In this document: positions 1 to 61,346 of the stretch, piece after piece | Layout of the letters: every line of letters begins with the position of its first letter | Position numbering within the stretch: position 1 is the stretch's first letter | DNA from: a virus | Reading direction: 5' to 3' (one strand) | Virus record (IMG/VR): IMGVR_UViG_3300045988_019905 | Length of the DNA stretch: 64,000 nt | Translations under genes and position numbers: made by a program | Notes under the pieces: generated by a model | Databases searched by the model: none | Told to the model about the DNA's origin: nothing | The model's input: only the letters and a program-made list of their open reading frames with translations

Positions 1-3000
1 ATAGCAACTTTATATAAAGTAGAAACTTTATTTCTAACTATATTAATATAATTAGTAGCTAATACAGTTTTAGTCTTTCCAAGTTTATCAGTAATATCTC
101 TAACAATTCTAATCTCTTTAGCAAGTTCTGTATCTTTCGCAGTACCAAGATTGAAATAATACATCTTTTGACTGTTAGGGAGATACGTAAGATTAGACTT
201 ACCTTTATTGAATCTTACTCTATAAGTAGGAATCTGTGGTATATTAGAATGACTACGAATATAATCTTCGTAGATATTGTTAGCAACAAGTTCTTTATCA
301 GATATAGCACTAACGCCAAATCTAATACTATCAATAATTCCAGTACCACCGTCTTCGCGAGAAGTATAAAGAGCACTATTTTTAATGACTTTACTAACAT
401 TGCCACGACGGAATTGATAACCCTCAACAACAAAAGCATATTTAATAATATCAATAGCAGTTAATCTAATAATAGGATTAGTATTATTAAAAGCTGCATC
501 AAACATCTTATATACACTTTCCATGTCTTGTTGTTGGTCGTCAAAACGAATCACTTGACTACTAATACCACGAGTTCTAAACTCATAACCGTTAAATAGA
601 TTAACATTAAGACTATTAAAAATAGTACGTTGACTTCCACTTAAATGACGTTGTACAAAATGTACTTTTTGAGCAGGAGTAAGTTTAGAGAAAGCATTAA
701 CTTCTTCTTGTGTAGGATTAGCAACATTAGCTATGTTAATATCATAGTTAATATCGTAACCAAATCCATAGATTCTTCTCTCTTCATCCTCTACGGGGGA
801 ACGTCCCTCTGATTCTACTTTACTTGCTGTTAATATATCTACTGCAATATTACCATTTCTTTCAAGTTCAATAGGCTGTGATATAATAGCAGAATTATTC
901 TTATACATATGTTCAAGAACATACTTCTTAAAATCATTATAAAGTTTCTCATTAACAGTTCCACCAAGATAATTCTGAATACTCTTAATAGCATTAGTGA
1001 AAGCATAAGATTCAGTTTCAAATAAACCTTGATTAATAAGAATACTTGGAACTGTACTATATCTTAAGAATCCATCAAGTATTGGATAAGCACTATCTTC
1101 ATTATTAGACGACAAGTAAATACTTGGCATGAAAGCTCCTTCTTCGGTAGCAGCAGTAATACCCGGATAAATAGCTTCAAGCAAAGGCTTATCTTTTACT
1201 TTAAGACGAGCAGCATCATCACTACTAAGTATTGCACTTATATCATCAATAACTTTACGTGTACTAAATATAGTTTGTTTAGCTCCAAATTTATCAGGAT
1301 TAAGTACTTTAACATGATTAGCTATAATACGACTATAATCATTAATATAATTAAAGTTAAGTATAGCAGCTAAATCTATTAGTAAAGTAGATTCATCGTA
1401 AAGACCAGCATTTTGTGCTGCAAATCGTTCTTCAATAGTTGGAACGTCTATTGTAAATACATCAGCATTATCTCTATTATCAAAGCTAATAGTACTATTA
1501 GGATACATCTTAGCAAACTCTTCTCCGTATTGTTGTTGAAGAGCTGTCATAACTTCCGTGATATTATTGTTATCAGTAACTACTTCATTACGTACTTTAA
1601 CTCCTAAATCATGAGCAACACGTTTAATTGCTGTATGAATAGGATTATAATTACCACGAACAAATACAGATTGAGATTCATAATAAGCCTCAACTATTCT
1701 ACTAACACCTGGCTGACGAAGCCAAGCCATAGCTGTATAAGCATCACAACCAATATCAAATAGAGTTTTAAATGCAGCAAACGTATATTCATTCTCATTC
1801 TTAATAGCTCCTTCTTTGATAGCATCAAGAATATGAGCGGTAGTATGAGAACTTGCAACTGTAATGTAGTCACCTACTACGTTCTTATTGTTTTTACTAT
1901 TTCCTATTCGGTTATGATAGACTATGCCATCTTTGACAGGAAATGCCTGAGCAGCAATATCAAGATTAACTCTATTACCATATCTTACTCTAATAGGAAC
2001 ACTAAGTTCAGCTTTAGCAACATTGAATACAGAGTTACCTGTATCGCGAGCAACACTAAATGCTTTCAATGTAGCACCTCCCATAGCATTTCTATGGAAT
2101 TGAATCTGGTCAAAAAGATTATAAACGTTTCTTTGTTTAGCACCAACAGCATCAAGTTTATCAAGAGCTTTATTTGCAGCAGTAATATCATCAAAGTTAC
2201 TACGAGCAAGATTCTCTTCGAGACTTGATTTATCATTCATGATAGCAATCATACTATCAACGATACGATTGTTTCGAGCGCGACGGTTATTTTGGTCTTC
2301 AATAGGAAGCTGTTTAAATTCCTCATAAGTAGGTAATCCAAAAGCAACAGCACGTTCATTAATAATATCTCCGAATTTATCTCTTGATAATTCTTTAATA
2401 TCATCTATTGTAAGACTATTAGCATTATCATTAATACGTCTGAACATATCTCTTTGTTCAGCAATAACGTCAGCTATTCTACTATACTTATCATAGAACT
2501 GTATAAATGCTGGATTATCTCCATATAGTCTACTATAAGTAGGCATAATAGAAAGGAGTCCACTAACTCTATCAGCAAACTTCAATTCTTTATTACGAAG
2601 AAAACCATCAACAATAGGTTTAAATTCATCAGGCAATTCATGATAAGTATCACCCTCATCAAGAAGTTCTTTTACTCTCTTTTCAAGATAATCTTCTAAA
2701 TCTTTATTACTCTTACGAATAACTTCAAAATATTTATCTTTAATAGATTGTTTAGTATCTCTATCTACTTGAAGCATATCTCGTGTTATACGTTCTTTAT
2801 CAGAATTTCTAAGAACATGAGATACATATCTTCCATAAGTAGCAGCTTCAGCAGTACTATCGCTAAATTCTACTTTATGAATACGACCATCTTTACCAAG
2901 ATAAGTCTCATAGGCAATACCATAAATAGAGTCAACGTCAAAGTCAGAACCAGTCTGTGTTACCCATTCATCTGGAACTACAATAGTACTTCCCATCCAT

Positions 3001-6000
3001 TCAGGTAGAAAACCTACAACTTTCATAACAGCCATAGACTGTTTACCCTCTGTTGGAATACGATAACCAATACATTTAAGAACTTCTTCATCAATATCTT
3101 CAATACGAATCTCTTTAACAAGATTACCATTTTCATCATATTGATTGAACATAGCTTTTGCCCATTTAGGAAGAAGTATTTCTACTTCTGAGCCATCTTT
3201 ATGATAGCCAAGTTCAACACGTTCACCAGTATCAGTTTCAATAGTTTCACCAGCTTTAAGTTGTTTACTCTTTTTAATAAGTCCATCAAGACCAACACTT
3301 GTTACTTGAGCAGCGTGCCATCCAGGAAGTTTTTGTCTTGTAATAAACTTATTAAATTGACTTTGAGCAATACTCTCAATTTTACTTGAGACAATATTCA
3401 TATAATTAGGCATGACCGGACCAGCATCACCATTCTTAACAGAAAGATAATCAATAGTATTACTATCAAGTCCAAGACGAGCAGCCTCTACCATCGCTAA
3501 TTTATAAATACGAGTATAATCAACTTTACCGTTATTGTCTCCTATAATACGATAGTTCCTATCAAACTTAATACCATACTTATCCATAAGAGCATTAAAG
3601 TCCTCACGGATATTAGCAACATAAGCTTTAATAAAATTATTCTTATGACTACTAACAGCAGCTTGGCTATTATCAAGTATCTTTTTCATTACTTGAATAC
3701 CAGCTTTATTCTGTGCATCAGTAATATGTTGAGGAACATCTTGTTGCTTATAAAGATACATATAACTGAATGGTTGTTTAACCTTTATAGCTTTCTCTTT
3801 AAATGCAGCAAGATTATCAGGAGTTACAACTCCTTCATTATCCCAATAAGTAAGTACATCATAATTAGCAGCTTTACTTGTTTCTTGAGTATTAACTTGG
3901 TCAATATCATTTTCTATCATGAAATTGGCAAGTTCTCCTAAACTTGTTCCCTCAAGGAATTTAGGTACAAGAACAAACTCTGCATTCTTAATTTGACGAG
4001 GAAGATGTCTACCAAAACGATTATTATAATAATGGTCATAGTAGAAGTTCTTCATTACCTGTATGAACGCTTGTAAATCATTAGGATTAATCTGATTAAC
4101 ATCAGTAGTAGCATCAGTAAGTTGCTTAATAAGTTTAGCATACTTAGGATATTCTCCTAATATCTTAAGACGACGAGCAGCTTCATATATAGTAATATAA
4201 GATTGAGCGTCATTAACAGTTGTAGTCGTAGCACTTGTTTCACCCTCATTCTCTTCAGGAACATAACCAAAACCTTCAGCAATTTCTCTTGCTTTATCTT
4301 TATTAGTTCCAGCTTCAATAAGTTTATTATAAAGCATATTACGGTTAGTACTTGGACGAATACTATTCTTAATAGTAACAGCATTCCAACCAGTTCTAAG
4401 AGTTACAGCTTTACCGTTAGGGAATTTAAGAGCTTCATCTCCAACAGAAAGATAAGTACCAGCTACTTCATTAACTGATTGAGTAAACGGACTATCGTTC
4501 TCTTGAACAACCTTATAATTAGCTATTGAATAACTTGTACCACCAGCTTGACTTTCCTTAGCACGTTTAAGGAATGTTTGAGGGTCTTTATAATACTTAC
4601 TATTTCCTTCAAATAAATCATCAAAATTAGCAAAATGAAGATAAGCATTAAGACCATATTCTGTAATCTCATAATCAGCAATACCCTCAAGGAAAGAACC
4701 AAACTTATTATGAGTCTCTCTAACAAAGTATTGTTGATAAGCATCAATCCATTTAGTAACAATATTATCAAGTTGGTCTTCAACATTTGCATCAAAAGTT
4801 ATAGATGCAGACGCATTTGCAGATTCAGAATATCCTGTTAATTGTATGCCCCCCGTAGAGGATGTGGAGGCAACAAGTTCATCCATAGCTTGCTCAACAT
4901 TATAACCAACAGTACTATCAAGTTTAGTAAACTTAAAAGCATTACCAGTAAGTTTACCTTTATCTCTAATACCCTTTTTAGGATTATAATGAAACCATTC
5001 AACAAGATGTTCTTTATCATTATGCTCAACATCATAAAGAGCTTTATAATAATCAAACAGTTCTCCTTTTAGAATATTAAGGAAACCATTATAAAGAGGA
5101 TGACTCTTATTAATATTACGAGCTTCGGGATGATTAGTTTTAAATTCTTCTTCTACTAATTGAGTAATAGCAGAACGATATTCACTAAGTTCATCACTGA
5201 AAATAGCTTGCCCTTGATAAGTAGGATTCTCTATATAATAACTACCTTTACCGTCATCACTAAGAATACCACTGAAATAATGATATTGATAGCCCTCATT
5301 AGGTTTACTGATAACATAAGCAATAGTTTGACGTTCTCCAACTTTAGGTTTAAGATTAAGAACTTTAGCAGGACTTGTTTTAATACGTTCAGGAGTATTC
5401 ATAACAAGATTAACTACTTCGTCAACAGAAGCATTCATTGCATTGAACTTAGTAAGTTGTTCATCTGCAATACTTAAATCAGCTACTTTAATAAGTTCAT
5501 TAATTCTAAACTTAGTATAAGCAGTCATAGCCGCTTTATCATAATTCCAAAGACCATCAGTAGAATACTTAGGCATACTTACTGCAAAGTTCTTAGGAGC
5601 ATCTGAAGGGATTCTCATTAAGAAAGGAGCAGTTTCAATTTGACGACCATTAGCAGTAGCAGTATTATATTTCTTATAAGTTTGAAGCTTTTTATGATAA
5701 GCATAAAGACCTACAAGATAATAGTCACCGTCAGACATCTTGGTATAGTCAGCATTAGTACCAGCTTGTTGATTACTTACTCCATTAAGCAGATAAGGAC
5801 TAATAAGTTTTTCTGCATAAGGACTAAGTTCATATTCTCCATTAGGTTTAATTCTAAATAAACCAACTATGCCTTGTTCCGGTCTATCAATAAGAATATT
5901 ACTATAAGCATATTCTGTAGATTTAAGTTTCTCTTTAACCCAAGCATTAAGAACATCTCTATCTCCACATATCTTAGCAATATTAGTAATGAAGTTATTA

Positions 6001-7890: not shown

Positions 7891-10800
7891 TTATAGGCAA
7901 TAAATTTTCGTCTCACCAGCAGCCAAAGAACGGTCAAATTCGGTACGTTCGGCGGCTGTAAGTCCGGTACGAATAGACGCCATGTTTGGCACACTTAGAT
8001 TATCACCTGTAATATCAATAGAACTAAACATATCACTAATATCAACATCAAGTCCCATAGTATCATCCGCTTGTTGAGACAGTTCAGCAGCAGTACTTTC
8101 TTGTTCATTAATGACGGTTGTAATAGGGGGAGTAGGTTCTTCTACTTTATTATTAACATCATCTTGAATAAGTTTCTCTTCAACACTCTTTATATCTTTG
8201 AACTTCTTACCAAATGCTCTAAGTTCTTGAGCTAAAAGAGTATTATCTTTAATCTTATTAAATCCAAATAGTTGTCTAATAAGCTCTATAATCTTCTGCC
8301 ATAGATTAGGTCGTTTAACATCAGCAGTAACTTTCTTAGTACTACTAATATTATTAAGAGCTTCATTAAGAACATTATTAGTAAGACTTTCAACAATAAA
8401 TTCTTCAAGCATATACGTATAATCCTTATTAGGAAAACTTGCAGGGTCAACTACTTTACGAAGTTGAGCAATATAATTATCTCTATCATAGAGATTATCT
8501 TGTATATGCTTAGTAAAATCTGGATAAGCATCAGGATTATTAAGAGCATTAATAAACGCATCACGAATAGCGCTAATCTCGTCTATGAAAATTTGAGATT
8601 GCATAATACCATTATCATAGATACGTTTATGAAGTTGTTCATGAGCAAGAACTCTAACAGCTTTATATTGACTACCACGAGCTAAATTAAAGAATGGTTT
8701 AAATAATGTAATACTACCATCAGCAGTATGATAAACTGCATAATCGGTATTATCATTAAAAGTATCAATAGAAACATTAGCAGGAAGTATTTCATCTAAT
8801 ATAGCTTTATCAGCAGCAGTTAGAAATTCAGGAGCAGTAGCTTTGATAATATCATTAGTAGGTACATTGTCTTGGTCACCACGTTGTTCGAGAGCATTAA
8901 TAGCAGCTTGTCTTGCTGTCTCTGCATCCTCTACGGGGCGCAGCACTTCATATTCAATCCGAACTTTTTGTTTAGCTGAATCATCTTTAGGATTAGGTCT
9001 AAAGTTACTTTCATAACCACCAATATTAGTCTTACCTAATCTAATCTTACCAGTACCGTTCTTGATAATATAATCAAGATAATTACCATAATTGTAAGAT
9101 TTATCTCCAAATGTAACAGTTAGTGAACCATTATCCTCATGTTTAACATAACGATTGCTATCTGTACCTCTGGCAATACCATGACTCATACTATAAACAG
9201 AACTATCAAGAAGTTTATTAACAACATCTGCTAATTCTGTTTCAAGAGTACCACCCCAACCAGTTCTACCAACACCAGCACCACTAACTTGAGTAGGATT
9301 CAATGTAATACCTGTGCCTAAGTCTGTACTATCATTCTTAAACTTATAGATAGTAATCATTGGTATATCACTTCCAGCAGTAGTTATAATTATACGATTA
9401 TTATATTCAATACAATTAACTCCATCTATAAAGTTCTTAACACCAAAGATTGACATAAGTCTATCTTTAAGTTCTTCAAATGTAATATTTCCTTGTTGAC
9501 GTTCTCTAATAGAATTAAGTACTTCATCACGAATAGCAGCACCTAATCCATTATTATAATTAACAGCTTGAGGAATAACTTTAGCATAGAAAGGCTCATT
9601 AGTTCCATTAGGAACAATAACTACCATATTACGATTCTTAAATCCAGCTTTGATTCTAACAGTTCCATTAGTGATATCATGTATTTCTCCGTCAGCAGCA
9701 ATAGCTCCAAGATGAATATCATCATAATTAAAACCTACAATAGCTTTATCAATAGCGGCAGGAGTAACATCATCTCCAAAGATTGCTTCTCCTCGACTAA
9801 TATATTTAACAGTAATCTTTATATTATCTTGATTATCAATAATATTATCAACCATTTTATAGTTGTTATATTGTTTAGCAATCCAATCTACATAAGATTG
9901 ATAGTTTGCATCAAGATTATCACTTACATTATAAAGATAAACACTACCTATACTTCTAAGTAGTCTAACAGCATTATCATTATTAGTATTTTTATTCTTA
10001 ACTTGATTAAGAAGTTCTTTAGTAAGACTATTGTTCCAGAACTTATCAATATCTTCTTGAGTAAGTCTTCCAGCTTTATTCTTATAAAGAGCATCTATAA
10101 ACTCTTTAGCTTCTTCACTAAGAACTCCATTTTGAGGATTAAGTTGGTCAAACAGGTCATCCAACGTACTACTATAACCATCTTCATTATATCTGATTTC
10201 ATAAGTTAAATAACCATTATCAAATATATATCCATCATTGTCAGCAGTTCGTTTAGCTCTTGAATTAAATCCTATCTTAGCATCTATTGGACCAGCAGGA
10301 CTATTAACCGTAGTCCAAAACTCAACTCCTTGCGATTTAACAACAGGAATAAGAGGTTGTCCAACAGCTAAAGAAGCGAGAGCTTGTTTACCAAAATCAT
10401 TATCTGTTCTAACTCCGATATTATTATCAAGTTCAGGATTCTCACGCTCTTGGTCTTGTACCAACTCCATCAACTTTTCACGACTAAGAGCAACATCTCT
10501 TGGGGATATATTGATAAGATTCTCATCAACTCCCGATACAAGATAAGCACTCAAATCGTTATAGAGTTTGTTCACCGTTTCAAATGTAGCATTACTTTCG
10601 TTAATTGCAAATCTCATTAGACTAATTATATTAAAATAATCCTTTCCACCTATTGATAGAATATTATTATCAGCTTTATAAATATCTATGAGATTCCTAA
10701 AGTATTCTGCACGATTAGCTTCATCAGCAGTCATAAGTTTAGCAATCACAAAATCTATACTACTTGCGTGTTCTCCATTATTCATTTCTTGAACACTATT

Positions 10801-13800
10801 ATAAATATATCGAATACTTCTAAGTTCTTGAGGAAGTATCTCATCAATTATGTCGGTCGGATAACCTTGACTAATAAGGTCATCTTTGATAGCAGAATAT
10901 TGTGCATCATAATCAAGTGTAACAAGATTTTCATCAGTGTTACTAAGAAACTTATCAAGAAGATAAGCATTAATTTCAGAAGAAGCATTAAATTGTCTTT
11001 CTTGAGCAGCTTCTTGTTGAGCAAGTATAGAATGTAGTTCAGCATCAGCAGTATCTTCAGTTACAGGAGCAACAATTTCTGGGGGAGTTTCTTCTCTACC
11101 CCCCGTAGGTGTGGAAGTATCAGGCTTAACTTCTTCGGGCTGTTCAGGTTCAGTAGGAGCTTCTTCTGTATTCTGAGCAACAACTGGAGGAGTTTGTACT
11201 GGTTGATTATTAACAGTAGCAGCAGGTTGTTGTCCTTTCTGTCTTGCTTTAAGTCTTGCGTGACGACTAATAACATCTACAATAGGTTCAGATGATTCAT
11301 CAAACAGATTAAGGTCACGGTTTATTCTATCAAGTTCGTCCTTAACATTATCACTAAGATTTACACCTGTATTGCCAGATAAATAATCAAGAACATCATC
11401 AATATCATTAGAGTCAAAAGCATTATCAAGTCTTTGAAGAGTATCTTTGAAAGCTTCATCTTCTGTAACTTTAAATATATTCTCAATATACTTAGCTCTA
11501 TCTCTAATTTCTTTATTTGTTTCAGCAATATCACTACTAACCAAAGTTTTTCTTCGGTCTGCCATACTACGTCCAATTACAGCAGTAGCAATATTTTTAT
11601 CTATATCATTAAGTTCTCTATAAGCATTAATATCACGAGCTTCATTATACATAGCATTAAATGCTGTTTCATCAGCAGCATTAACAGACTTAAGAAACGC
11701 TTGTTTCTTCTTATTTATACGACGAGCAATATGTCCATGTTCGAGTTTATTAATTTTCTTATCTCTAAGATTCTTATCATTAAGAGTAAGTTGTTGATTA
11801 AGATAATTAAGTTCTTGATTAATACCCTCAAGATTAATAACTCTATTAAGTTCTCCAACACGAAGTTTAGCGTTCTCATCTGTTATATCATTAAGTGCTC
11901 GATTATAATCAGAAGTATAACCGTCTATTATACGTTGTTCAGCTTTAGTAGCTAATTTATTATATGTATTCTCCTTAGCAATTCTACCAGCAATATTAGC
12001 GTCTTTAGCGTCATTATTAATAGCTTTATTAAGTTCAGTTTCATACATCTCTGAAACTTCAGCCATCTTAGCAACCGTATTTGCCATAAATTGTTTAGAT
12101 TCTCCTTGTTCAATAGCATCACTCTTATCCATATATTGAGCAGTATCTTCTGACATTAGAAAATCTTTAAGCAAATCATAGTTACCTTTGTCAATAGCAT
12201 TAATTGTTAAATCTGTTATTAACTTTTCAGTTTCAGTTTGTTTAAGAGCTTCACGTTCAGTATCACTTATTTCTTCATAAGCGTTAGTACCATCAGCATT
12301 TTGAATAACATTCCCACTATCGTCAAGTATAGGACTATTAGGATTAAGATTATTATTCAAGATAGCCATATTATTTACATATCTATCAAGAAGAGCAGCA
12401 CGACTATCAATTTCAGCTTTACGACTTTCTGTTAGAACATCTTTGTTCTTAGTAACATATTTAGCCCATTGTCTTGTAGCAGCACTACCTATTCCTTGAA
12501 AAGCAACTCCACCAAGCCATCCCCAAAATGCTTGTTCCCACATTTGTGGGTCTTGAAGATAATCAGTATAAACACGAGATTGATAAGCATCATTAAGCAT
12601 AGCACGACCTTTATCAACTCCGGCTTGTTGTTGTACATATTGCCAACCCTCTTCAAATCCTTCACTACCCTCACGAACAACATTAAGAAGAGTTTCTTTA
12701 TCAGGAACTTGTAGAAACTTTTTAATACCAGTAGGCGATTGAATTTCTCTACCAACTAATCGAGCGGCAGCTTGTTCATTTGCTTTTCTCAAAGTTTTAT
12801 TGGTAGCCATATTCTTAGCACCTTTCCAAATATTCTTTAGTCCTTTGAGCTGCCAAGCATCTAATAACATAAGCCACATATCATTCGTGAAAGTATCATC
12901 AGCAGATTCACCAGATACATATTTAGCAATTTCGTCATCACTAAGTCCACGAAGTTTAGGATTATTCTCATATAGAGTTTCTCTGTCTTTATCAGACATA
13001 GTAGCTAATCGTTCCTTAGCTTCATCATAAACTTGTGTATAAGTATCACGAGCTTCTATATAGTTTTCAGCAACTCTACTTGCAGCAGCAGTACCTAAAA
13101 TCTCACTTCCAGTTTCTGCCATCTTACCCCAAGTATTAGGTCTACCAAATGGTGTACCAGCAACTTTACCGATACCACGAGCAAGACGTCCCATACCTAA
13201 TACTTTACCAAGTTTAGAAACAGCAGTACCGGGAATAAGAAGACTCAAAGTAGAAGCTATACTAACAGCATTACCAAGCCACCAACCTGTATCTCCAAAA
13301 TCAAAATTTTCATCAGGATTAGTACGATAGATTTCAAATCTTTCACGAATAGCATCTTGCCATTCAGCAAGTTGAGAACTAACAGGATTTGTATAATCGT
13401 CATCAGAAACTCCTATAAGTTGCCCAGCAGCATCAACCAAATCACTAAATCCACGAAGAGTACCAAGAACAACTTCAGAACCAACAGCTTGCCCAACAAA
13501 TCTACCGGTTTGCTCAAGTACTCCTTGATTTTCTGCACGTTCTTTATTTAATTCTTCTTCAGTATTATAAGGATTAACATAAACATTATAAGGAGTATAT
13601 TTATCTACATCATATTGATTAAGATTATAAATACCTTTAGCAAGTGTACGTCCTAAAACAGAACGACCCTCGTCACTAATAGAAGTGCCGGGGTTATAAT
13701 CTGTAATAGTAGGGGGCTGAAGTGCCCCCTTTTTAGTCTTAGGATTATAGTCAGGATTATCTCTAACGTTTCCTTCTTGTGCAAACTTTAGTATATCCAT
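7891..13800 (-). CDS. Giant virion (cargo or ejection-type) protein, 1969 aa, with an HExxH zincin-like motif
   Basis: Seen: ATG at 13800 and stop at 7891. The 1969-aa ORF abuts the upstream gene directly. The motif ...RVLAHEQLHKRIY... (HEQLH) is encoded at 8629-8643. There are long coiled-coil-like stretches and a hydrophobic segment (WWLGNAVSIASTLSLLIPG). Inference: the size and the position next to the RNAP resemble the packaged giant proteins of crAss-like phages. Peptidase activity is unproven. Confidence 0.7.
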   Translation of the reverse strand: MDILKFAQEGNVRDNPDYNPKTKKGALQPPTITDYNPGTSISDEGRSVLGRTLAKGIYNLNQYDVDKYTPYNVYVNPYNTEEELNKERAENQGVLEQTGRFVGQAVGSEVVLGTLRGFSDLVDAAGQLIGVSDDDYTNPVSSQLAEWQDAIRERFEIYRTNPDENFDFGDTGWWLGNAVSIASTLSLLIPGTAVSKLGKVLGMGRLARGIGKVAGTPFGRPNTWGKMAETGSEILGTAAASRVAENYIEARDTYTQVYDEAKERLATMSDKDRETLYENNPKLRGLSDDEIAKYVSGESADDTFTNDMWLMLLDAWQLKGLKNIWKGAKNMATNKTLRKANEQAAARLVGREIQSPTGIKKFLQVPDKETLLNVVREGSEGFEEGWQYVQQQAGVDKGRAMLNDAYQSRVYTDYLQDPQMWEQAFWGWLGGVAFQGIGSAATRQWAKYVTKNKDVLTESRKAEIDSRAALLDRYVNNMAILNNNLNPNSPILDDSGNVIQNADGTNAYEEISDTEREALKQTETEKLITDLTINAIDKGNYDLLKDFLMSEDTAQYMDKSDAIEQGESKQFMANTVAKMAEVSEMYETELNKAINNDAKDANIAGRIAKENTYNKLATKAEQRIIDGYTSDYNRALNDITDENAKLRVGELNRVINLEGINQELNYLNQQLTLNDKNLRDKKINKLEHGHIARRINKKKQAFLKSVNAADETAFNAMYNEARDINAYRELNDIDKNIATAVIGRSMADRRKTLVSSDIAETNKEIRDRAKYIENIFKVTEDEAFKDTLQRLDNAFDSNDIDDVLDYLSGNTGVNLSDNVKDELDRINRDLNLFDESSEPIVDVISRHARLKARQKGQQPAATVNNQPVQTPPVVAQNTEEAPTEPEQPEEVKPDTSTPTGGREETPPEIVAPVTEDTADAELHSILAQQEAAQERQFNASSEINAYLLDKFLSNTDENLVTLDYDAQYSAIKDDLISQGYPTDIIDEILPQELRSIRYIYNSVQEMNNGEHASSIDFVIAKLMTADEANRAEYFRNLIDIYKADNNILSIGGKDYFNIISLMRFAINESNATFETVNKLYNDLSAYLVSGVDENLINISPRDVALSREKLMELVQDQERENPELDNNIGVRTDNDFGKQALASLAVGQPLIPVVKSQGVEFWTTVNSPAGPIDAKIGFNSRAKRTADNDGYIFDNGYLTYEIRYNEDGYSSTLDDLFDQLNPQNGVLSEEAKEFIDALYKNKAGRLTQEDIDKFWNNSLTKELLNQVKNKNTNNDNAVRLLRSIGSVYLYNVSDNLDANYQSYVDWIAKQYNNYKMVDNIIDNQDNIKITVKYISRGEAIFGDDVTPAAIDKAIVGFNYDDIHLGAIAADGEIHDITNGTVRIKAGFKNRNMVVIVPNGTNEPFYAKVIPQAVNYNNGLGAAIRDEVLNSIRERQQGNITFEELKDRLMSIFGVKNFIDGVNCIEYNNRIIITTAGSDIPMITIYKFKNDSTDLGTGITLNPTQVSGAGVGRTGWGGTLETELADVVNKLLDSSVYSMSHGIARGTDSNRYVKHEDNGSLTVTFGDKSYNYGNYLDYIIKNGTGKIRLGKTNIGGYESNFRPNPKDDSAKQKVRIEYEVLRPVEDAETARQAAINALEQRGDQDNVPTNDIIKATAPEFLTAADKAILDEILPANVSIDTFNDNTDYAVYHTADGSITLFKPFFNLARGSQYKAVRVLAHEQLHKRIYDNGIMQSQIFIDEISAIRDAFINALNNPDAYPDFTKHIQDNLYDRDNYIAQLRKVVDPASFPNKDYTYMLEEFIVESLTNNVLNEALNNISSTKKVTADVKRPNLWQKIIELIRQLFGFNKIKDNTLLAQELRAFGKKFKDIKSVEEKLIQDDVNNKVEEPTPPITTVINEQESTAAELSQQADDTMGLDVDISDMFSSIDITGDNLSVPNMASIRTGLTAAERTEFDRSLAAGETKIYCL
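8920..8938 (-). repeat. Copy of the GC-rich dispersed motif
   Basis: Seen: the minus strand reads CCCCGTAGAGGATGCAGAG. Sense orientation in the 1969-aa CDS, translated ...VLRPVEDAETA... Confidence 0.8.
11099..11117 (+). repeat. Copy of the GC-rich dispersed motif
   Basis: Seen: the plus strand reads CCCCCCGTAGGTGTGGAAG. Antisense orientation in the 1969-aa CDS, translated ...DTSTPTGGREE... It is preceded by GGGGGAG at 11081-11087, which can pair with the C-run. Confidence 0.75.
13712..13734 (+). terminator. GC hairpin plus T5 on the antisense strand, inside the 5' end of the 1969-aa gene
   Basis: Seen: GGGGGC-tgaagt-GCCCCC followed by TTTTT on the plus strand. It lies within codons for ...KKGALQPPT... 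of the minus-strand gene. Inference: it has the form of an intrinsic terminator for rightward (antisense) transcription. Confidence 0.35.
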
Positions 13801-16436: not shown

Positions 16437-18395
16437 TTAAAATGTAACACCTTTACTTGTAAACAATCTACGGTCAACATTAGGATGTGTAGCATCATAG
16501 ATACCAAGAGTATTATTATAATTTCTACGATTTTCAATACGACTAAGCATATCTTGAAGTCCAGCATTAATACCACTAAACATATTATTAAGAGAACTTG
16601 CTTTCTGTTCACGAATACTATTACGGAAAGCGGCACTACGATTCTGCCAATCGTTCATAGCAGCAACATTAGTAGCTCTAACACCTTGCTTATTCAATCT
16701 ATCTTGATTAATAAGTTGTGTTTCAATGTTCTCTTTTTGTCCACGAAGACTGTTCTTAGAAGTTTGTGCTTGATTACGAGTTCTTTGAAGTCTTTGTAGA
16801 CGAGTTCTACTACTTGAAGTATTAGCATTAATATCAGTAGCCATACGACGAGCATTCTCTTCAATCTCTCCAAGTTGTGGACTAATGTTAAAATCAGTTT
16901 TAAGATTAGACGCTACAACAGAATTAGGTTGAGGAGGAGCTTCCATATTATTAAGTGCTTTACGAGTATTAATACCGCTTGCAATAGTACCAGCAAGATT
17001 AGCACCAAGACCTATAATATCATTAGTGTCAAGTTTATCAAATAAAGCAAGTCTCTTACGAGGAGAACTAATAGTATCAGGAACGCCAGCATTAGTACTT
17101 GCGCCATCAACAGTACGAGTAGGTATCGTAGTTGGAATATTTCTTGATAAAGTAGGAAGTCCTTGCATCATACTATCAAGACTTGCAAATTTAGGAGCAG
17201 CAGTAGGTGTAGCAGTAGCAGAAGTTTTAGTAGTTTTGCTACTTCCACTTCTCCTACGGGGGGCAGAACTTGTAGCAGGTTTAGATGTCTTAGTTGCAGC
17301 TGTAGTAGCAGGAGCTTCTTCAATAGGAGTAACTCTTGTCTGTGGAGCACTATTTGTACTTCTTGTTCCAGTATTTCTGTTACCACCACTATAAGTTCCA
17401 GGAGTAAATTCAGGAACTTCTAACATATTTCTAAAGTCAGTTCTTGCACCTTTAGCGTCTCTACTTGCAGCATCAGTAACTTGTTTACGTTGTGCAGCAG
17501 CATCTCTTGCATAACTTGAAGCATCAGGATAACGAGTATCATAACTACCACGTCTAACAGTAAATCCTCTATTAGAACCAGAATTATTTTTACTACGACT
17601 TCCAGCACTATTTCCAGTTGCTCTATATTGAACAGGATTAAAAGGTTCTATAAAATTATTACCTTTTGGAATAGAACTATTAGCAACAGAAGCTTTAGCA
17701 TCACGTTTAGCAGCAGCTCGTACTTGTCTATCAGATTTACGAGCAGCAGCACCACGACCATCAAGTAATCTACTATTAGGAACATCATCGTCAATAGGTA
17801 GATAAGCAGTTTCGCCAAATTCATCATTAGTAACTTGATAAAGTTGTCCGTTCATAACAACATAATCTTTATCTCTCTTATCAGTACCAAGTGCAGCTTT
17901 TTTCCTACCCCCCGTAGGAGAAGGAAAAGGAACGTCTCCTACGAGCTTATCAATAACATTACCATTAACAGTAACAAAACCACCAGCAGCTTTTCTATTT
18001 TTATTAGGAACTAAACCAAGTTCTTCATCTATCTCAGTATTAGTTCTTCTACGAATCTTAACTTTACCACCCATACGTTTTTTACTTCCATCGTCATTAA
18101 TTCCATTTACATCTTTAAATGTTTCTTGTGCTTGAAACACTTTATCAGGATTAGCACCACCCATTACAAGTTTAGCAGGACTATTACCATTAATAATAGG
18201 TTGAGCACTAAATACTCTTAGACTATCTGGTCGTGTTTCGACAATCTCTCCATCTTCGACTTCTAAACCAGTCTTAGGATTCTTGCCAATATCAATACCA
18301 CCTTGAGAGTGTTTACGACCATTCATATAGTAAAGATTACCACCAATGTTAGTTGCTTTACCACCTCTAACTACATTTGGTTTAATTTTAGTCAT
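16437..18395 (-). CDS. Low-complexity basic virion protein rich in S/T/A/R (652 aa)
   Basis: Seen: ATG at 18395. The central ~300 aa are compositionally biased (…TKTSKPATSSAPRRRSGSSKTTKTSATATPTAAPK…). The gene carries two inverted copies of the GC-rich motif. Confidence 0.7.
   Translation of the reverse strand: MTKIKPNVVRGGKATNIGGNLYYMNGRKHSQGGIDIGKNPKTGLEVEDGEIVETRPDSLRVFSAQPIINGNSPAKLVMGGANPDKVFQAQETFKDVNGINDDGSKKRMGGKVKIRRRTNTEIDEELGLVPNKNRKAAGGFVTVNGNVIDKLVGDVPFPSPTGGRKKAALGTDKRDKDYVVMNGQLYQVTNDEFGETAYLPIDDDVPNSRLLDGRGAAARKSDRQVRAAAKRDAKASVANSSIPKGNNFIEPFNPVQYRATGNSAGSRSKNNSGSNRGFTVRRGSYDTRYPDASSYARDAAAQRKQVTDAASRDAKGARTDFRNMLEVPEFTPGTYSGGNRNTGTRSTNSAPQTRVTPIEEAPATTAATKTSKPATSSAPRRRSGSSKTTKTSATATPTAAPKFASLDSMMQGLPTLSRNIPTTIPTRTVDGASTNAGVPDTISSPRKRLALFDKLDTNDIIGLGANLAGTIASGINTRKALNNMEAPPQPNSVVASNLKTDFNISPQLGEIEENARRMATDINANTSSSRTRLQRLQRTRNQAQTSKNSLRGQKENIETQLINQDRLNKQGVRATNVAAMNDWQNRSAAFRNSIREQKASSLNNMFSGINAGLQDMLSRIENRRNYNNTLGIYDATHPNVDRRLFTSKGVTF
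17252..17273 (-). repeat. Copy of the GC-rich dispersed motif
   Basis: Seen: the minus strand reads CCCCCCGTAGGAGAAGTGGAAG. Sense orientation in the 652-aa CDS in a different frame from other sense copies, translated ...SSAPRRRSGS... Confidence 0.8.
17908..17930 (+). repeat. Copy of the GC-rich dispersed motif
   Basis: Seen: the plus strand reads CCCCCCGTAGGAGAAGGAAAAGG. Antisense orientation in the same 652-aa CDS, translated ...PSPTGGRKK... Its first 16 nt are a perfect inverted repeat of 17258-17273. Confidence 0.8.
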
Positions 18396-46914: not shown

Positions 46915-48066
46915 TTAGATATACTTTAATTTGTTCTTAAAAGCAGCAATAACATTAGCGTTATCAGGGTCTTTAGCCCAAGCTATTGCTTCTTTCATGT
47001 TAGCACCGATAAATTCACCGTCCTGTGTAGTAATGTTTTGATTAAACTTAGAACGGACAAACTCACCACGAGAAATAAGCAGTTCAATGAACGACTTAAT
47101 CTCAATGTCTTTATCCTTAACAATATTGTTAAACTTAACCGGTTCAGCAGTACTAAACTTATCAAGTTGAACTTCTTTTTCAAGTCTATCGTTAAGCATT
47201 GAGTTAACAATCGGCAGACCAGCAATAACACAATACTGAATGTAAACTGCATCAAACATATCGTCATTACCGATAACTTCAACGTAGTTACGTTTAGCAT
47301 TGTTAATCTCTTGACGGAGCTTTTGCTGACGTTCTCTATCTTTCGTATCATCACGGAAGTAGAATCTCACATAAGGGTCGCTATTAATAATAGCAGTATC
47401 TTTCGCAATGTCTCTGTAAAGTAAACAGTGACGATAGAGCAGATATTCAGCTATATTAACAGGACTACCATAAGCATGAAGCTGACTTTCAAGATTATTA
47501 ATCGCCATAATCTTAGCATCAAGAGCTTTACGAAGTTCTTGAATATTCTGACGATTAGCTTTCTTATATTGAAGTTCAATAGCTTCTTCTTGAGCCTTAA
47601 ATTTAAGATAATCCCGTTTATGGTTAAATTGGAAAGAACAATCAAAAGTAACTCCGAGTTCATCAACACGAACTTGAATATTATTCAAATACTGTTTAAG
47701 ACGAGAAATAAAATTCTCATTGTTAGGAGAAAGACCAAGAAGTTGAGGAAAGTAAGCTTCAACCTCTGCACGATTCGATGCAAGTACTTGTGAACTACGC
47801 ACGGAAGAACCAATGAAATCTCTCCGCTTAGGAAGTACTTTATCATTCGCTTTACGATACAGAGAATAATTCTGAATCAGAGCAATACTTACAGTACGAT
47901 TATAAGTGAAAGGTGCATCAAGTTCTTCATCCGATTCTTGCTGTGCAGTCTTAATCGGTTCTTTCTTGTTCTCATCTCCTACGGGGGAACTCCCTGTTTC
48001 TCCGCCAGCTTTTAAAGCATTAGTAGCTTCTTCAGTTTTGCCAGCACCAGCTGTATTAAAATCCAT
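46915..48066 (-). CDS. Head-module protein (383 aa), function unknown
   Basis: Seen: ATG at 48066, immediately downstream of the putative major capsid gene. The N-terminus is acidic and looks disordered, and it carries a copy of the GC-rich motif. Confidence 0.65.
   Translation of the reverse strand: MDFNTAGAGKTEEATNALKAGGETGSSPVGDENKKEPIKTAQQESDEELDAPFTYNRTVSIALIQNYSLYRKANDKVLPKRRDFIGSSVRSSQVLASNRAEVEAYFPQLLGLSPNNENFISRLKQYLNNIQVRVDELGVTFDCSFQFNHKRDYLKFKAQEEAIELQYKKANRQNIQELRKALDAKIMAINNLESQLHAYGSPVNIAEYLLYRHCLLYRDIAKDTAIINSDPYVRFYFRDDTKDRERQQKLRQEINNAKRNYVEVIGNDDMFDAVYIQYCVIAGLPIVNSMLNDRLEKEVQLDKFSTAEPVKFNNIVKDKDIEIKSFIELLISRGEFVRSKFNQNITTQDGEFIGANMKEAIAWAKDPDNANVIAAFKNKLKYI
47968..47987 (-). 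repeat. Copy of the GC-rich dispersed motif
   Basis: Seen: the minus strand reads CCCCCGTAGGAGATGAGAAC. Sense orientation in the 383-aa CDS, translated ...GSSPVGDENKK... Confidence 0.75.
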
Positions 48067-50947: not shown

Positions 50948-51166
50948 ATTTTTATTTATACCTTATATAATAGCACGTTTCCGATAAGGACTACGAGCTG
51001 GATAAATTTGTTATCTATTTAATTACTGCCGGACTACCTGTACTCCAACTCACTATTAGCAAGACACACACGTAGACCTACATAGGTTGCCCACCATACG
51101 ACAAAAATAGTTACTGTGAACAATCTATCGAATCTAAGGCAAAAGCCCATACAGCTCGATTCTGTG

Positions 51167-51185
51167 CCCCGTAGAGGATGCAAAG
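51167..51185 (+). repeat. Copy of the GC-rich dispersed motif (intergenic)
   Basis: Seen: the plus strand reads CCCCGTAGAGGATGCAAAG, in the gap between the portal and scaffold-like genes. Confidence 0.8.
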
Positions 51186-59752: not shown

Positions 59753-59819
59753 ATCAATAGTTTTAAGTGTGGAAGCAACAGCAGATTATGCAACTTTCAC
59801 AAGCTGATTTATTCCACCG

Positions 59820-59837
59820 CCCGTAGAGGATGTGAAG
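59820..59837 (+). repeat. Copy of the GC-rich dispersed motif (intergenic)
   Basis: Seen: the plus strand reads CCCGTAGAGGATGTGAAG, in the 139-nt gap between 59752 and 59892. It is bracketed by the 8-bp inverted repeat GAAGCAAC (59772-59779) and GTTGCTTC (59857-59864). Confidence 0.8.
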
Positions 59838-60892: not shown

Positions 60893-61346
60893 TGGTTGTC
60901 GTGGAGATATACATGGGGATATAAGAGCAGGTTGTGGTGGTGATATACCTACACATCCTCTACGGGGGAAAAGCCCAACTGAATGGGCAAATATTGCAGC
61001 ATTTGGTATTGAGAATTATAAACCCACTTGTCGTGGTGATTATAGACCAGATTGTCCTATTGATGATAATGTGGATTATACTGGCAATATAAGACCGGTT
61101 GTGGCTGGACATGGTGAATATGGAGCTGATGCTAATCTTCATGGAAATAGTGCTGACGCTGGAAGTAGAGATTGACTTGATAATCTACTTAGGAGACATT
61201 GTGGAGATTATTAACGTGAAAATCAGCTTAGGAGTAGATGCTGATTTTGATGGGGATTTGAATATGAGGATTTCAAAGAATGTTGGTTTAGAAGTTTATG
61301 GAACTTTTTTTATCTGATTGATGAACATAGAGATTTTGGAGATATA
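60893..61346 (+). repeat. Array of degenerate direct repeats (iteron-like, core GGTTGTSGTGGWGATWATA / GTGGAGATATA)
   Basis: Seen: copies occur at 60893-60911 (right arm of the 17-bp inverted repeat), 60915-60923, 60930-60947, 61027-61044, 61050-61068, 61071-80, 61097-61121, 61197-61213 and 61336-61346. All are in the same orientation. Related sequences are GGTTATCGGAGATTA at 63702-63716 and GGTTGTGTC at 63728-63736. Confidence 0.6.
60948..60968 (-). repeat. Copy of the GC-rich dispersed motif (non-coding, inside the iteron-like array)
   Basis: Seen: the minus strand reads CCCCCGTAGAGGATGTGTAGG. Confidence 0.8.

Follow-up and report, generated by a model that had tools for sequence, protein, structure and literature searches.

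The window, that is, the whole 64,000-nucleotide stretch of viral DNA analysed here, comes from a crAss-like phage of the family Intestiviridae and carries 15 strong copies of a 20-base word, (C)CCCCGTAGRGGATGTGRAG, against about 0.4 in shuffled sequence. The copies are listed below, together with two weak relatives and with the scores under a position weight matrix (PWM) made from the 15 copies.

780..801, minus strand, TTCCCCCGTAGAGGATGAAGAG: RNAP gene (gp44 homologue), sense, read S-P-V-E-D-E; 32.7 bits; kept in four relatives
4848..4869, plus strand, GCCCCCCGTAGAGGATGTGGAG: RNAP gene, antisense, S-S-T-G-G; 38.8 bits; on protein anchors 11 nt from crAssphage site 39092+, which copies in crAss002 and Rudgehvirus also match
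8920..8941, minus strand, GCGCCCCGTAGAGGATGCAGAG: 1969-aa gp45 homologue, sense, R-P-V-E-D-A; 34.6 bits; exact orthologue of crAssphage 42688-, which Rudgehvirus 41010+ matches too
11098..11119, plus strand, ACCCCCCGTAGGTGTGGAAGTA: gp45 homologue, antisense; 21.7 bits; 3-nt deletion relative to near-identical relatives, which carry GTAGGAGATGTGGAA; about 63 nt from crAssphage site 44953+, with an unaligned stretch between
17243..17264, minus strand, GCCCCCCGTAGGAGAAGTGGAA: 652-aa gp47 homologue, sense, A-P-R-R-R-S; 33.9 bits; exact orthologue of crAssphage 50982-
17907..17928, plus strand, ACCCCCCGTAGGAGAAGGAAAA: gp47 homologue, antisense; 28.9 bits; in diverged relatives a partner copy persists, about 340 nt away from the orthologue of 17243..17264
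24253..24274, minus strand, ACCCCCCGTAAGGGAAGTGAAG: 302-aa gp50 homologue, sense, T-P-R-K-G-S; 33.3 bits; exact orthologue of crAssphage 58525-
24485..24506, plus strand, ACCCCCCGTAGAGGGTGTGCAG: gp50 homologue, antisense, P-S-T-G-G; 33.5 bits; orthologue of crAssphage 58727+
34086..34107, minus strand, ACTCCCCGTAGGAGAAGTGGAT: 1190-aa fibre gene, sense, L-P-V-G-E-V; 27.8 bits
40930..40951, plus strand, GTCCCCCGTAAGGGATGCAGAG: 1076-aa fibre gene, antisense, S-L-T-G-D; 32.8 bits; SLTGD or SLTRD in the homologues covering the site
47968..47989, minus strand, TTCCCCCGTAGGAGATGAGAAC: 383-aa gp73 homologue, sense, S-P-V-G-D-E; 29.2 bits; exact orthologue of crAssphage 83025-
51164..51185, plus strand, GTGCCCCGTAGAGGATGCAAAG: intergenic, with the start codon of the gp75 homologue 259 nt downstream; 31.5 bits
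56273..56294, plus strand, TCCCCCCGTAGGGGATGTGAAG: 137-aa gp78 homologue, antisense, H-P-L-R-G; 37.5 bits; exact orthologue of crAssphage 91287+, and also aligned with the crAss002 copy
59816..59837, plus strand, ACCGCCCGTAGAGGATGTGAAG: intergenic, 68 nt upstream of the start of a 182-aa ORF; 33.5 bits
60949..60970, minus strand, TTCCCCCGTAGAGGATGTGTAG: in the gene-poor switch region of 1.1 kb, with an AT-rich palindromic stretch about 60-80 nt to its left; 32.2 bits
20660..20681, plus strand, TCTCCACGTAGAGGATAAGGAC: weak, doubtful relative; 17.4 bits
34404..34425, plus strand, GCCCCCCATAGGAGAATCTGGA: weak, doubtful relative; 12.6 bits, inside the range reached by shuffles

All 15 copies claimed in an earlier note on this DNA were present, at the coordinates and strands given there except for one, which had been placed at 17252-17273 and really lies at 17243-17264. 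Twelve copies are coding, as had been counted, but they fall in 8 genes rather than 9 (four with two copies and four with one), and long-ORF criteria bear out the three non-coding copies. The 15 copies scored 21.7-38.8 bits, and only two further places, 20664+ (17.4) and 34408+ (12.6), reached the threshold of 12 bits, which shuffled sequences passed with a mean of 0.64 hits. Two proposed degenerate relatives, at 23782-23806 and 61447-61460, have only CCCGT(A/C) in common with the motif and score below 12 bits, and they are unsupported as copies. The CCCCGTAR count was 14, whereas 100 dinucleotide-preserving shuffles gave 0.41 on average and never more than 2, so the claimed excess over chance was upheld; 18-mers with at most three mismatches numbered 13 in the window and none in the shuffles. 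A GGG run, proposed to precede the C-run in about half of the copies, was found in 6 of 16 regex-defined copies, in a 10-nt stretch whose end lies 2 nt before the C-run; the background probability is 0.019. The motif is a GC-rich word in a genome of 29-33% GC.

The identical nucleotides are read in three frames, both sense and antisense. The coding copies give P-V-E/G-D/E in four cases, P-R-R/K-R/G-S in two, antisense (S/P/L)-T-G-(G/D) in five and HPLRG in one, as had been proposed. A conserved peptide motif was ruled out by these four readings and by the non-coding copies, all from the same nucleotides; codons such as CCC GTA GAG GAT are fixed while neighbouring residues diverge. A chance or composition artefact was likewise ruled out by the 14 copies observed versus about 0.4 after shuffling. 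Lineages that share an orthologous site also share its reading frame, which suits a peptide explanation. With that frame constant, peptide conservation is possible for one site taken alone. Overall, the probability left to an artefact or a conserved peptide is negligible. Intragenic copies are sense and antisense in a ratio of about 50:50, which makes the RNA-level signal once considered unlikely.

The core was found in every Intestiviridae member checked, with 32 copies in the prototypical crAssphage (Carjivirus communis), 28 in crAss002, 29 in cr107_1 and 25 in Rudgehvirus, and no copies of it were found in the Steigviridae and Crevaviridae genomes checked. Many copies are orthologous down to the nucleotide and agree in orientation, though the DNA of the genomes no longer aligns. 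On protein anchors, 7 of the 12 mappable window copies lie at most 11 nt from a same-orientation crAssphage copy, five of them at most 1 nt, and in the RNAP, primase, SNF2 ATPase and gp45 genes the copies of crAss002 and Rudgehvirus coincide exactly with those of crAssphage. In relatives that are 75-85% identical, 52 of 52 copies were kept, with no gain or loss in 52 site-by-relative comparisons, and the 14-base core was 94% identical versus 74% for the flanks. The three frames, the two orientations, the core-to-flank difference and the exact positions across subfamilies confirm the earlier view that the nucleotide sequence, and not a peptide, is conserved.

Each lineage has its own consensus, common to its dispersed copies, and this indicates concerted evolution. 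The consensus is ACYCCCCGTRGAGGATGGA in crAssphage, CCCCCGTAGRGGATGTGRAG in the window clade and TTCCCCCRTARAGGAG in crAss002, and CCCC-T-GTARAGGAG occurs in 20 of 25 Rudgehvirus copies, orthologous sites included. All these demonstrated DNA-level constraint, positional antiquity and concerted evolution of the motif. Judging from the sequence comparisons, the motif must be read by a sequence-specific factor that co-evolves with it, and the "protein recognition site" suggested in the earlier note is still the best class of explanation. That note had reported the copies and their occurrence on both strands, but not the family-wide range, the alternating orientation and even per-strand spacing described below, or the concerted evolution. 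Its remark that it knew of no matching described element agrees with the literature searched, in which no published description of the motif was found.

At the fibre copy 34086..34107 (site 34103), the motif-bearing sequence and its motif-free homologues are colinear with no indel, demonstrating that this copy arose by in-place substitution. In crAssphage and crAss002 a same-orientation copy lies inside the gp75 gene, and its replacement in the window lies about 460 nt away (intergenic 51164..51185). Since the laterally exchanged fibre gene gained its copy by substitution and the gp75 copy was replaced nearby, selection appears to act on having sites. A miniature in-frame insertion element, as had been suggested, fails where it can be tested, given the absence of an indel at site 34103 and of gain or loss in the 52 comparisons. 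A recombination hotspot was also without support, as the sole visible mosaic boundary, at about 4.0-4.5 kb, is not on the motif.

The same observations bear on a selfish or mechanically spread repeat with no function for the phage, either a miniature mobile element or a sequence that short-patch gene conversion has spread and homogenised. Intragenic selfish repeats (Rickettsia palindromic elements, yeast mitochondrial GC clusters, REP/BIME) are, like the motif, GC-rich in AT-rich genomes and tolerated in coding sequence, and REP elements have a conserved GTAG by the hairpin and alternate in orientation within BIMEs. The GC-rich word in a genome of 29-33% GC, the copies in variable or low-complexity protein segments, the concerted consensus changes within a genome, the gp50 inverted pair that brackets a segment missing from crAss002 and the GTAGA-C6-GTAGA direct-repeat look of some crAssphage copies all fit such an origin. 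However, selfish repeats are inserted elements that show presence/absence polymorphism and have palindromic bodies of 30-150 nt, whereas the motif shows neither indels nor, over 52 comparisons with the relatives sampled, any polymorphism; it has only a weak palindrome and keeps exact deep orthology across subfamilies whose DNA is unalignable. Site 34103 is colinear with motif-free homologues, no terminal inverted repeats, target duplications or tied transposase-like gene were found, synonymous-position decay would have erased neutral copies, and neither alternation nor even spacing would be expected. A selfish repeat is thus very unlikely, and the 20-base word is almost certainly a working DNA signal, not chance, a peptide or a jumping element.

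The orientation and spacing of the copies are ordered. Plus and minus alternated in 12/14, 21/31, 22/27 and 20/24 neighbour pairs of four genomes (permutation p = 0.012, 0.04, 0.0006 and 0.0014). Same-strand gaps were over-regular: in all four genomes the more regular strand had a CV of 0.28-0.44 and p ≤ 0.003, with p < 5e-5 for the plus strand of crAssphage and p = 5e-5 for the minus strand of Rudgehvirus; on the less regular strand the CV was 0.54-0.72, with p from 0.01 to 0.18. Each strand carries one copy per about 6-7 kb. Same-strand copies are always at least 1.1 kb apart, and opposite-strand copies come as close as 35-45 bp. Two overlaid arrays, one per strand and each roughly evenly spaced, would produce the observed alternation. 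No orientation-linked base-composition skew was found in the segments between copies.

Roughly regular spacing genome-wide could point to a site for an architectural or packaging protein, such as an IHF/HU-like virion protein or a cargo protein, which would organise the genome of 90-97 kb inside the cell or the capsid, with orientation incidental. The conserved positions, a lineage-specific consensus that implies a co-evolving protein, and the two IHF-like proteins encoded by these phages are consistent with it. Yet duplex binding predicts neither the alternation (p = 0.0006-0.04 in four genomes) nor the difference between same-strand (at least 1.1 kb) and opposite-strand (down to 35 bp) distances, nor the strand-specific mini-hairpin tails described below, and IHF-type sites are AT-rich. 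We consider an architectural site quite unlikely.

A polar "self" signal for a DNA-tracking helicase-nuclease (Chi-like), or a site for a roadblock protein, would halt end degradation or resection within a few kb either way. The two orientations occur equally often, each at even intervals, and this fits a signal for which it counts how far off the next correctly oriented copy lies. Chi, KOPS and the Neisseria DUS/Haemophilus USS uptake sequences share with the motif strong over-representation, intragenic positions in any frame and on both strands, a density of about one per few kb and inverted intergenic pairs able to form hairpins, like crAssphage 22901+/22938-. New copies appear in acquired DNA, and the phages encode a Gam-like protein, RecT, a PD-(D/E)XK nuclease and a RecD-like helicase. 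AGCGG/GAAGCGG, words that serve as Chi for AddAB in Bacillus and Staphylococcus, occurs in the tails of long-form copies (6/32 and 5/27, versus about 0.01 expected per window), but these are only about one-fifth of the copies. Known words of the Chi, KOPS and uptake kinds have lengths of 5-12 nt and number hundreds to thousands per genome, whereas the core of the motif, at 14-25 nt and in 25-32 copies, is far above what a translocating enzyme needs for recognition. Chi and KOPS are biased in orientation with replication direction, whereas the motif alternates and has no orientation bias along the genome; no nuclease was linked to it. Headful packaging, with ends anywhere, in crAss002 (PMC8042965) would suit such a signal, which nevertheless seems unlikely overall.

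Structures adjoining the copies suggest further readings. Of the GCGNAGC heptamers, which are GNA-triloop mini-hairpins, 9/10 in the whole crAssphage genome and 6/10 in crAss002 lie at most 60 nt 3' of the G-run, on the G-run strand only. A hairpin, GGCAC-GTA-GTGCC, follows a copy in both crAssphage and the window clade. The tails and the shared hairpin hint at single-strand recognition. Not every copy has a hairpin adjoining its G-run: in two lineages the mean DNA folding energy was lower than background by only about 1 kcal/mol, and in crAss002 it was not lower at all, and the GGG-N-CCC feature is absent from crAss002. The AT-rich palindrome and iteron-like repeats of the window are flanked by the opposite-strand copies 59820+ and 60966-, and both RepL genes of crAssphage are preceded by opposite-strand copy pairs, an origin-like setting.

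Another possibility is a promoter, or a polar pause or termination signal, of the phage's own virion-packaged RNA polymerase, with the G-run strand CTYCAYATCCTCTAC followed by GGGGG resembling T7-group promoters that start on a G-run. Like the 23-bp promoters of T7, T3 and SP6, the motif is asymmetric, about 20-25 nt long, conserved within a genome and lineage-specific, and has a G-run at the putative start; the lineage-specific consensus would then reflect polymerase/promoter co-evolution. Single intergenic copies point their G-run toward the next start codon, 27-270 nt off, at 8 independent sites versus 3, although this bias is not significant, and back-to-back copies lie in the switch region, from which the gene blocks diverge. 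GC hairpins 3' of the G-run in some copies are like 5' stem-loops, and their GNA triloops recall the hairpin promoters of the N4 virion RNAP. T7-type promoters, however, point the same way as the genes and lie mostly between them, and those of N4 are few and at one end, whereas about three-quarters of the copies are intragenic, sense and antisense about 50:50. Conserved convergent pairs 200-650 bp apart in essential genes would collide, the even per-strand spacing is unexpected, and the polymerase of crAss phages is of the two-barrel type and not T7-like. The virion polymerase injected by crAss-like phages prefers denatured DNA and has no known promoters, both in favour of this reading; against it, no common upstream motif was seen in phi14:2 among early transcripts of the virion polymerase, and host sigma-70-type promoters serve the middle and late genes there (bioRxiv 10.1101/2020.03.07.982082). 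On balance, a promoter or other polymerase signal of this kind is rather unlikely.

The motif is a cis-acting, strand-specific DNA signal common to all Intestiviridae crAss-like phages examined. We tentatively favour the possibility that each copy is a point at which one particular strand acquires a free 3' end, through a nick or a primer; the event at the site and the identity of the reading factor are both inferred. One route would be a site-specific nick, comparable to the localized single-strand interruptions of T5-, phiKMV- and LUZ24-type phages. The nick motifs of T5/BF23, phiKMV-like and LUZ24/tf-like phages (5'-CGACxxxxxCCTA/CTCCGG-3', 5'-TACT/RTGMC-3') are, like the motif, asymmetric, 9-20 nt long and dispersed in about a dozen or more copies including intragenic ones, lie at similar positions in relatives with differing consensus, have been proposed to co-evolve with the nicking enzyme and have no established biological role (PMC3517423). 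All sites of each described system are on one strand (PMC3517423), whereas the motif uses both strands equally and alternates, and the hosts and phage order are unrelated. Nicks 35-45 bp apart on opposite strands, implied by some pairs, would be fragile sites, and the absence of an orientation-linked skew between copies also counts against 3'-end formation.

The other route would be sequence-directed priming, comparable to single-strand initiation (ssi) signals such as the complementary-strand origin of phage G4 and ssiA/ssiB of RSF1010, which lie by iterons and an AT-rich segment. These signals are strand-specific, have small GC hairpins including GNA-type loops and form opposite-strand pairs at the origin, much as the window copies flank an AT-rich palindrome and iteron-like repeats. 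They are, however, longer, structured and present once or twice per replicon, whereas the motif is a short linear core with optional hairpins found genome-wide. Known DnaG-type primases read 3-5 nt, not 14-25 nt, and a homologous primase is present in cr127_1, where the motif is absent. No nickase gene or unusual primase was tied to the motif, and no obvious reader was found among the genes present in crAssphage and crAss002 but undetected in motif-free cr127_1. By either route, the nick or primer at each copy would allow DNA synthesis or strand processing to begin on either strand anywhere in the genome.

Over the stretch that runs from the giant RNAP gene gp44 to the switch region preceding RepL, the window is collinear with crAssphage (Carjivirus communis, BK010471), and the DNA that can be aligned between the two amounts to less than 1 kb at ~79% identity. 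The window represents a distinct genus of Intestiviridae, because its major capsid protein is 75% identical to that of crAssphage and 60% identical to that of crAss002. Its G+C content is 29-38%, and between position 1 and ~60.5 kb every long ORF is on the minus strand, so that minus-strand copies of the motif are sense and plus-strand copies are antisense.

The motif, a dispersed GC-rich word of ~20 nt in which a C-run is followed by GTA and a purine-rich tail, had been proposed to be far more frequent than expected, and this was borne out by shuffled controls. On its two strands together, the window contains CCCCGTAR 14 times, compared with a mean of 0.41 and a maximum of 2 in 100 dinucleotide-preserving shuffles, and the 18-mer CCCGTAGRGGATGTGRAG was found 13 times with up to 3 mismatches, versus 0 in shuffles. 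A position weight matrix built from the 15 copies scored them at 21.7-38.8 bits and separated them from the rest of the window, where only two other matches reached 12 bits, 20664+ (17.4) and 34408+ (12.6; shuffle average 0.64; + and - give the strand). The coordinates, strands and peptide readings listed in the earlier note were correct overall, except that the copy given as 17252-17273 lies at 17243-17264. The 12 of 15 copies that are intragenic fall in 8 genes rather than the 9 counted before, and of the "degenerate relatives" neither 23782-23806 nor 61447-61460 was supported as a copy.

Comparisons with relatives showed that the constraint acts on the DNA. In eight contigs 75-85% identical to the window, each motif in alignable DNA falls on one of the 15 copies in the same orientation, no extra copies were seen in alignable DNA, and the copy was kept in 52 of 52 site-by-relative comparisons (0 losses); these contigs were retrieved via the motif itself and are a biased sample, but they tile long stretches, so that a lost copy beside a kept one would have shown up. 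The 14-nt core is 94% identical in these relatives, versus 74% for the surrounding 120 nt. Depending on the copy, the nucleotides of the motif encode PVED, PRRGS, STGG or HPLRG or are non-coding, in agreement with the earlier suggestion that the DNA and not a peptide is conserved. The four readings and the non-coding copies, together with the difference between core and flanks, exclude a repeated peptide motif, and the probability left to chance or a peptide motif is negligible.

The positions of the copies are also conserved at greater distances. Protein-anchored mapping placed 7 of the 12 mappable window copies no more than 11 nt from a same-orientation crAssphage copy, five of them no more than 1 nt, and the remaining ones 60-860 nt from such a copy. 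In the RNAP, primase, SNF2 ATPase and gp45 genes, crAss002 and Rudgehvirus have copies at precisely the nucleotide positions of crAssphage copies. The proteins carrying these orthologous copies are 23-57% identical, which means that synonymous positions are saturated.

A scan of IMG/VR by exact pattern gave 96 loci. All AT-rich loci with several copies were crAss-like, and lone matches in GC-rich contigs were attributable to chance. The conserved core is at least 14 nt long, extending to 20-27 nt with lineage-specific flanks.

Other genomes carrying the motif
crAssphage: 32 copies of ACYCCCCGTRGAGGATGGA, on both strands, genic and intergenic
crAss002 (cultured): 28 copies of TTCCCCCRTARAGGAG
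cr107_1 (congener of crAss002): 29 copies
Rudgehvirus jaberico (cultured): 25 copies of WCWCCCC-T-GTARAGGAG

A related motif was not found in the first 50 kb of crAss001 (Steigviridae) or in cr127_1 (Crevaviridae). The crAss001 segment (L101) contains 20 occurrences of the 8-mer TCCAGAAG, often longer as CTCCAGAAGGAG; 14 of them are on the plus (coding) strand, and this mostly coding-strand word was set aside as an analogue of the motif, being probably a coding bias (P-E-G or P-E-E). The genome of cr127_1, which is 25% GC, contains eight mostly intergenic copies of a different GC-rich repeat of ~45 nt, ACAGTWTAA-TGGCCACAAGGGCGAGAGGTGTTCCGAA-ATTCGT. This repeat, unrelated to the motif, hints that family-specific dispersed signals may be wider in Crassvirales.

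Copies of the ~45-nt repeat in cr127_1 (L104 and L105)
1780-, 11353+, 11923-, 19710-, 28709-, 28868+, 42229+, 59322+

We then considered how the copies arose. Copy 34103- lies in a fibre gene that is not shared with the 75-85% relatives and has homologues in two motif-free crAss-like contigs, L102 and L103. The alignment at this site is colinear with zero indels (GGATTACCAATAGGTAAAACAAGAATA versus GGACTCCCCGTAGGAGAAGTGGATATA in the window), so the motif was apparently written in place by substitution, or equally lost in this way in the other lineage. The gp75 gene provides a second case: the crAssphage and crAss002 copy is within a low-complexity N-terminal segment of the gene, and the window homologue is without an internal copy, but 259 nt upstream of it there is one in the same orientation. 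Taken together, the in-place origin at 34103 and the replacement at gp75 point to selection that would favour having a site per region rather than mobility. At the fibre site 40934, every homologue found was at least 78% identical and those spanning the site all carry the motif, so this copy is uninformative on its origin. The fibre homologue in L102 is split by a frameshift at ~4600-4729, near the equivalent of window site 34103, which is either an assembly error or real.

The in-frame insertion element considered in the earlier note is contradicted by the indel-free alignment at 34103 and by the retention of all 52 copies compared. Miniature insertion elements in general (MITE, RPE or mitochondrial GC cluster) were rejected on the same grounds, as presence/absence polymorphism of the copies was not seen. 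There are no inverted repeats inside a copy, and a GTAGA-C6-GTAGA direct repeat is present in some crAssphage copies only. A selfish repeat is very improbable. An invertible or cassette segment between inverted pairs was also rejected, as the gp50 segment from 24270- to 24489+ is still homologous at the protein level in relatives. Nor did the motif behave as the recombination hotspot once suggested: in a 500-nt identity profile against 11 relatives, the only clear mosaic boundary, at ~4.0-4.5 kb, was off any motif. Over about the first 4 kb of window 1-4500, inside the RNAP gene, contigs 3300045988_025227, _010290 and _015643 are 91-98% identical to the window, compared with 75-85% elsewhere, which indicates a probable recent recombination tract ending at ~4.0-4.5 kb. 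In the tail-fibre block at ~27500-45300, alignable DNA is absent from the retrieved parts of the 75-85% relatives, and homologues of one fibre protein of the window were found in L102 and L103, which points to a fibre module that may have been exchanged across crAss lineages.

Each lineage has a consensus of its own that is common to its dispersed copies, including the orthologous ones. In Rudgehvirus, 20 of 25 copies have T in place of the last C preceding GTA, among them exact orthologues of crAssphage copies with C. Five copies have the ancestral CCCCCGTA and not CCCCTGTA.

Rudgehvirus copies of the ancestral form
L108 (Rudgehvirus): 31622-, 36962-, 44574-, 46595+
L109 (Rudgehvirus): 77127-

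Four of these five are clustered at 31.6-46.6 kb, the region of RNAP-associated genes, which may be either a block from another lineage or a sign of uneven change along the genome. Coordinated change at dispersed sites requires a drifting reader with the sites following it, or homogenisation by gene conversion. The drifting reader is more likely, because the constraint is old and at the DNA level and the copies did not originate by insertion. The motif is thereby shown to act in cis as a strand-specific signal whose reader evolves along with it.

The copies are almost equally divided between the strands, and neighbouring copies alternate in orientation well beyond chance expectation in all four genomes, in tests that are not independent since orthologous sites are common to the four.

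Strand of copies and alternating neighbour pairs (permutation tests, not independent)
Window: 8 plus, 7 minus; 12 of 14 pairs alternating, p = 0.012
crAssphage: 18 plus, 14 minus; 21 of 31 pairs, p = 0.04
crAss002: 12 plus, 16 minus; 22 of 27 pairs, p = 0.0006
Rudgehvirus: 12 plus, 13 minus; 20 of 24 pairs, p = 0.0014

Gaps between copies on the same strand are over-regular, with a CV of 0.28-0.44 for the more regular strand of each genome and 0.54-0.72 (p 0.01-0.18) for the other strand.

Examples of the more regular strand
crAssphage: plus strand, CV 0.33, p below 5e-5
Rudgehvirus: minus strand, CV 0.30, p = 5e-5
crAss002: minus strand, CV 0.44, p = 0.0006

The minimum same-strand distance is 1.1 kb, and opposite-strand pairs are as close as 35-45 bp. 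Two evenly spaced arrays, one per strand, make alternation automatic, and per-strand spacing is therefore taken as the primary feature of the layout. The base composition of inter-copy segments showed no difference in skew by orientation type (Mann-Whitney, GC skew p = 0.33, AT skew p = 0.21). This layout shows a motif that seems to be required on each strand at intervals. That the spaced copies are architectural binding sites is improbable.

The orientation of the copies also bears on the idea that the virion RNAP uses the motif as a promoter or pause signal. In its size, its G-run on the complementary strand and the lineage-specific consensus of a ~20-23 nt block, the motif matches T7-type promoters, and intergenic copies have a weak orientation bias (8 versus 3). 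However, T7-type promoters precede genes and point in the same direction as those genes, which is not so for the motif: intragenic copies are ~50:50 sense and antisense in all genomes, and most window copies are intragenic. We consider this explanation unlikely.

The per-strand spacing would also fit a Chi-like polar self signal, and a further lead, though a lead only, comes from AGCGG-rich tails adjoining about a fifth of the copies. These long forms are mostly intergenic; read along the G-run strand, (AGCGN) repeats or a short GC hairpin come after the core.

Examples of long-form copies
crAssphage (L097/L098): 6032-, 28077+, 28183-, 44953+, 93667+, 95875-
crAss002 (L099/L100): 4220-, 47850-, 86212+

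The tails of (AGCGN) repeats contain AGCGG or GAAGCGG, which serve as Chi for AddAB in Bacillus and Staphylococcus. With a core of at least 14 nt, however, the motif is far longer than Chi and uptake words, which are 5-12 nt, and a Chi-like role is quite unlikely. The same tails hold nearly all GCGNAGC heptamers of the genome, which we take to form GNA-triloop mini-hairpins in single-stranded DNA. Of the 10 heptamers in all of crAssphage, 9 lie no more than 60 nt 3' of a G-run and on its strand, as do 6 of the 10 in crAss002, with none on the other side of the G-run or on the other strand. The linkage is tight and strand-specific, and it involves a minority of copies. Single-strand initiation signals of the G4 type or RSF1010 ssi require a stable hairpin on the functional strand. 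One copy in crAssphage (93667+) and one in the window clade, outside the window itself, are each followed by the hairpin GGCAC-GTA-GTGCC.

Small GC hairpins had also been suggested from a GGG run placed 3-5 nt before the C-run. The window does show this arrangement, at 6 of 16 copies, and so does crAssphage, at 5 of 32, against a background probability of ~0.02, but crAss002 lacks it (0 of 27). Predicted DNA folding of the 50 nt beside the G-run is about 1 kcal/mol below background, and not lower in crAss002, and a predicted stable hairpin is missing at most copies. A tally of the crAssphage ACT/ACC and GTGG/GTAG variants was without the co-variation needed for a CTCC-CCGT-GGAG stem, and a hairpin was rejected as the defining feature. 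Because predicted folding is just slightly more stable than background, the hairpins are, on these predictions, optional additions to a linear core. No matches to Rfam at gathering score, tRNA or tmRNA were found in the window.

The region at window 60555-61060, where the sign of the GC skew flips, has the look of an origin of replication or of a divergent control region that separates the two gene blocks.

Features of the switch region in the window
59820+ and 60966-: motif copies on opposite strands, either side of the AT-rich palindromic stretch
60660-60890: very AT-rich palindromic stretch
60573-60589 and 60893-60909: perfect 17-nt inverted repeat bracketing it, TATCTCCACGACAACCA and its complement
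60896, 60932, 61028 and 62400: iteron-like TTGTCGTGGAGAT repeats

In crAssphage, opposite-strand pairs of copies are located ahead of both RepL genes. A plus-strand open frame of 97 codons (60882-61172) runs across copy 60966- (HPLRG) with repeated C-x-G-D-like units (GCRGD, GCGGD and TCRGD), and may encode a small cysteine-rich protein or have arisen by chance from the iteron-like repeats. A set of imperfect direct repeats, 27-55 nt long (ACTCATTCAC..ACAAAATAA.., ..GTTCTGATAAGACTA..), is located at 62442-62660, upstream of and at the start of a 216-aa ORF (62619..63269).

Pfam gave no family at cut-off for ten window proteins (five small ORFs and five motif-bearing genes). A candidate reader of the motif was sought by phyletic profile: 14 crAssphage genes have a homologue in crAss002 and none in cr127_1, including RecT, gp19, an SSB, gp22 and an IHF-like protein, and none of the 14 is an obvious sequence-specific enzyme.

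The nearest precedent is provided by the localized-nick motifs of T5, phiKMV-like and LUZ24/tf-like phages, which are asymmetric, 9-20 nt long, dispersed, conserved in position and thought to co-evolve with their enzyme (PMC3517423). The motif likewise has an asymmetric consensus and is dispersed at similar positions across related phages, with the ~9-20 nt length of these systems. Localized-nick systems, however, have all their copies on a single strand (PMC3517423), whereas the motif is on both, which places it outside that family as defined. Each copy may direct the formation of a 3' end on one given strand, through nicking or priming, a reading that we hold tentatively. With somewhat greater doubt, the copies may form two interleaved, evenly spaced, strand-specific site arrays at which a dedicated phage enzyme would open or prime each strand every few kb, as a genome-wide system of Intestiviridae not recognised before. 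The remaining probability belongs to mechanisms outside those considered.

A description of the motif was not found by an exact-string and keyword search of the literature open without subscription; the exact strings occurred only in unrelated primer lists, and the papers on the phi14:2 RNAP, the crAssphage phage-plasmid, crAss002 and Rudgehvirus were without mention of such a motif. We class the motif with the recognition words found scattered through phage and bacterial genomes, among which its strand alternation, even spacing, deep orthology and concerted evolution make an unusual layout. The reading is testable now, as crAss002, Rudgehvirus jaberico and C. communis are all culturable. The lineage-specific variants offer a compact typing marker for these phages, and in recoding or engineering of these genes the "coding" bases within the motif bear a second constraint.

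The prototypical crAssphage, a member of Intestiviridae, is more abundant than any other phage of the human gut, and a phage-plasmid lifestyle was recently proposed for it. Constraint stronger than that on the coding sequence around the motif, fixed positions across subfamilies, concerted rewriting and an alternating, even layout point to an unrecognised DNA transaction and a putative sequence-specific enzyme behind the motif. If the two-array reading is true, it would mean distributed, sequence-programmed replication or self-marking of a 90-100 kb phage or phage-plasmid genome, without counterpart among the described phage replication, nicking, promoter and Chi-type systems.
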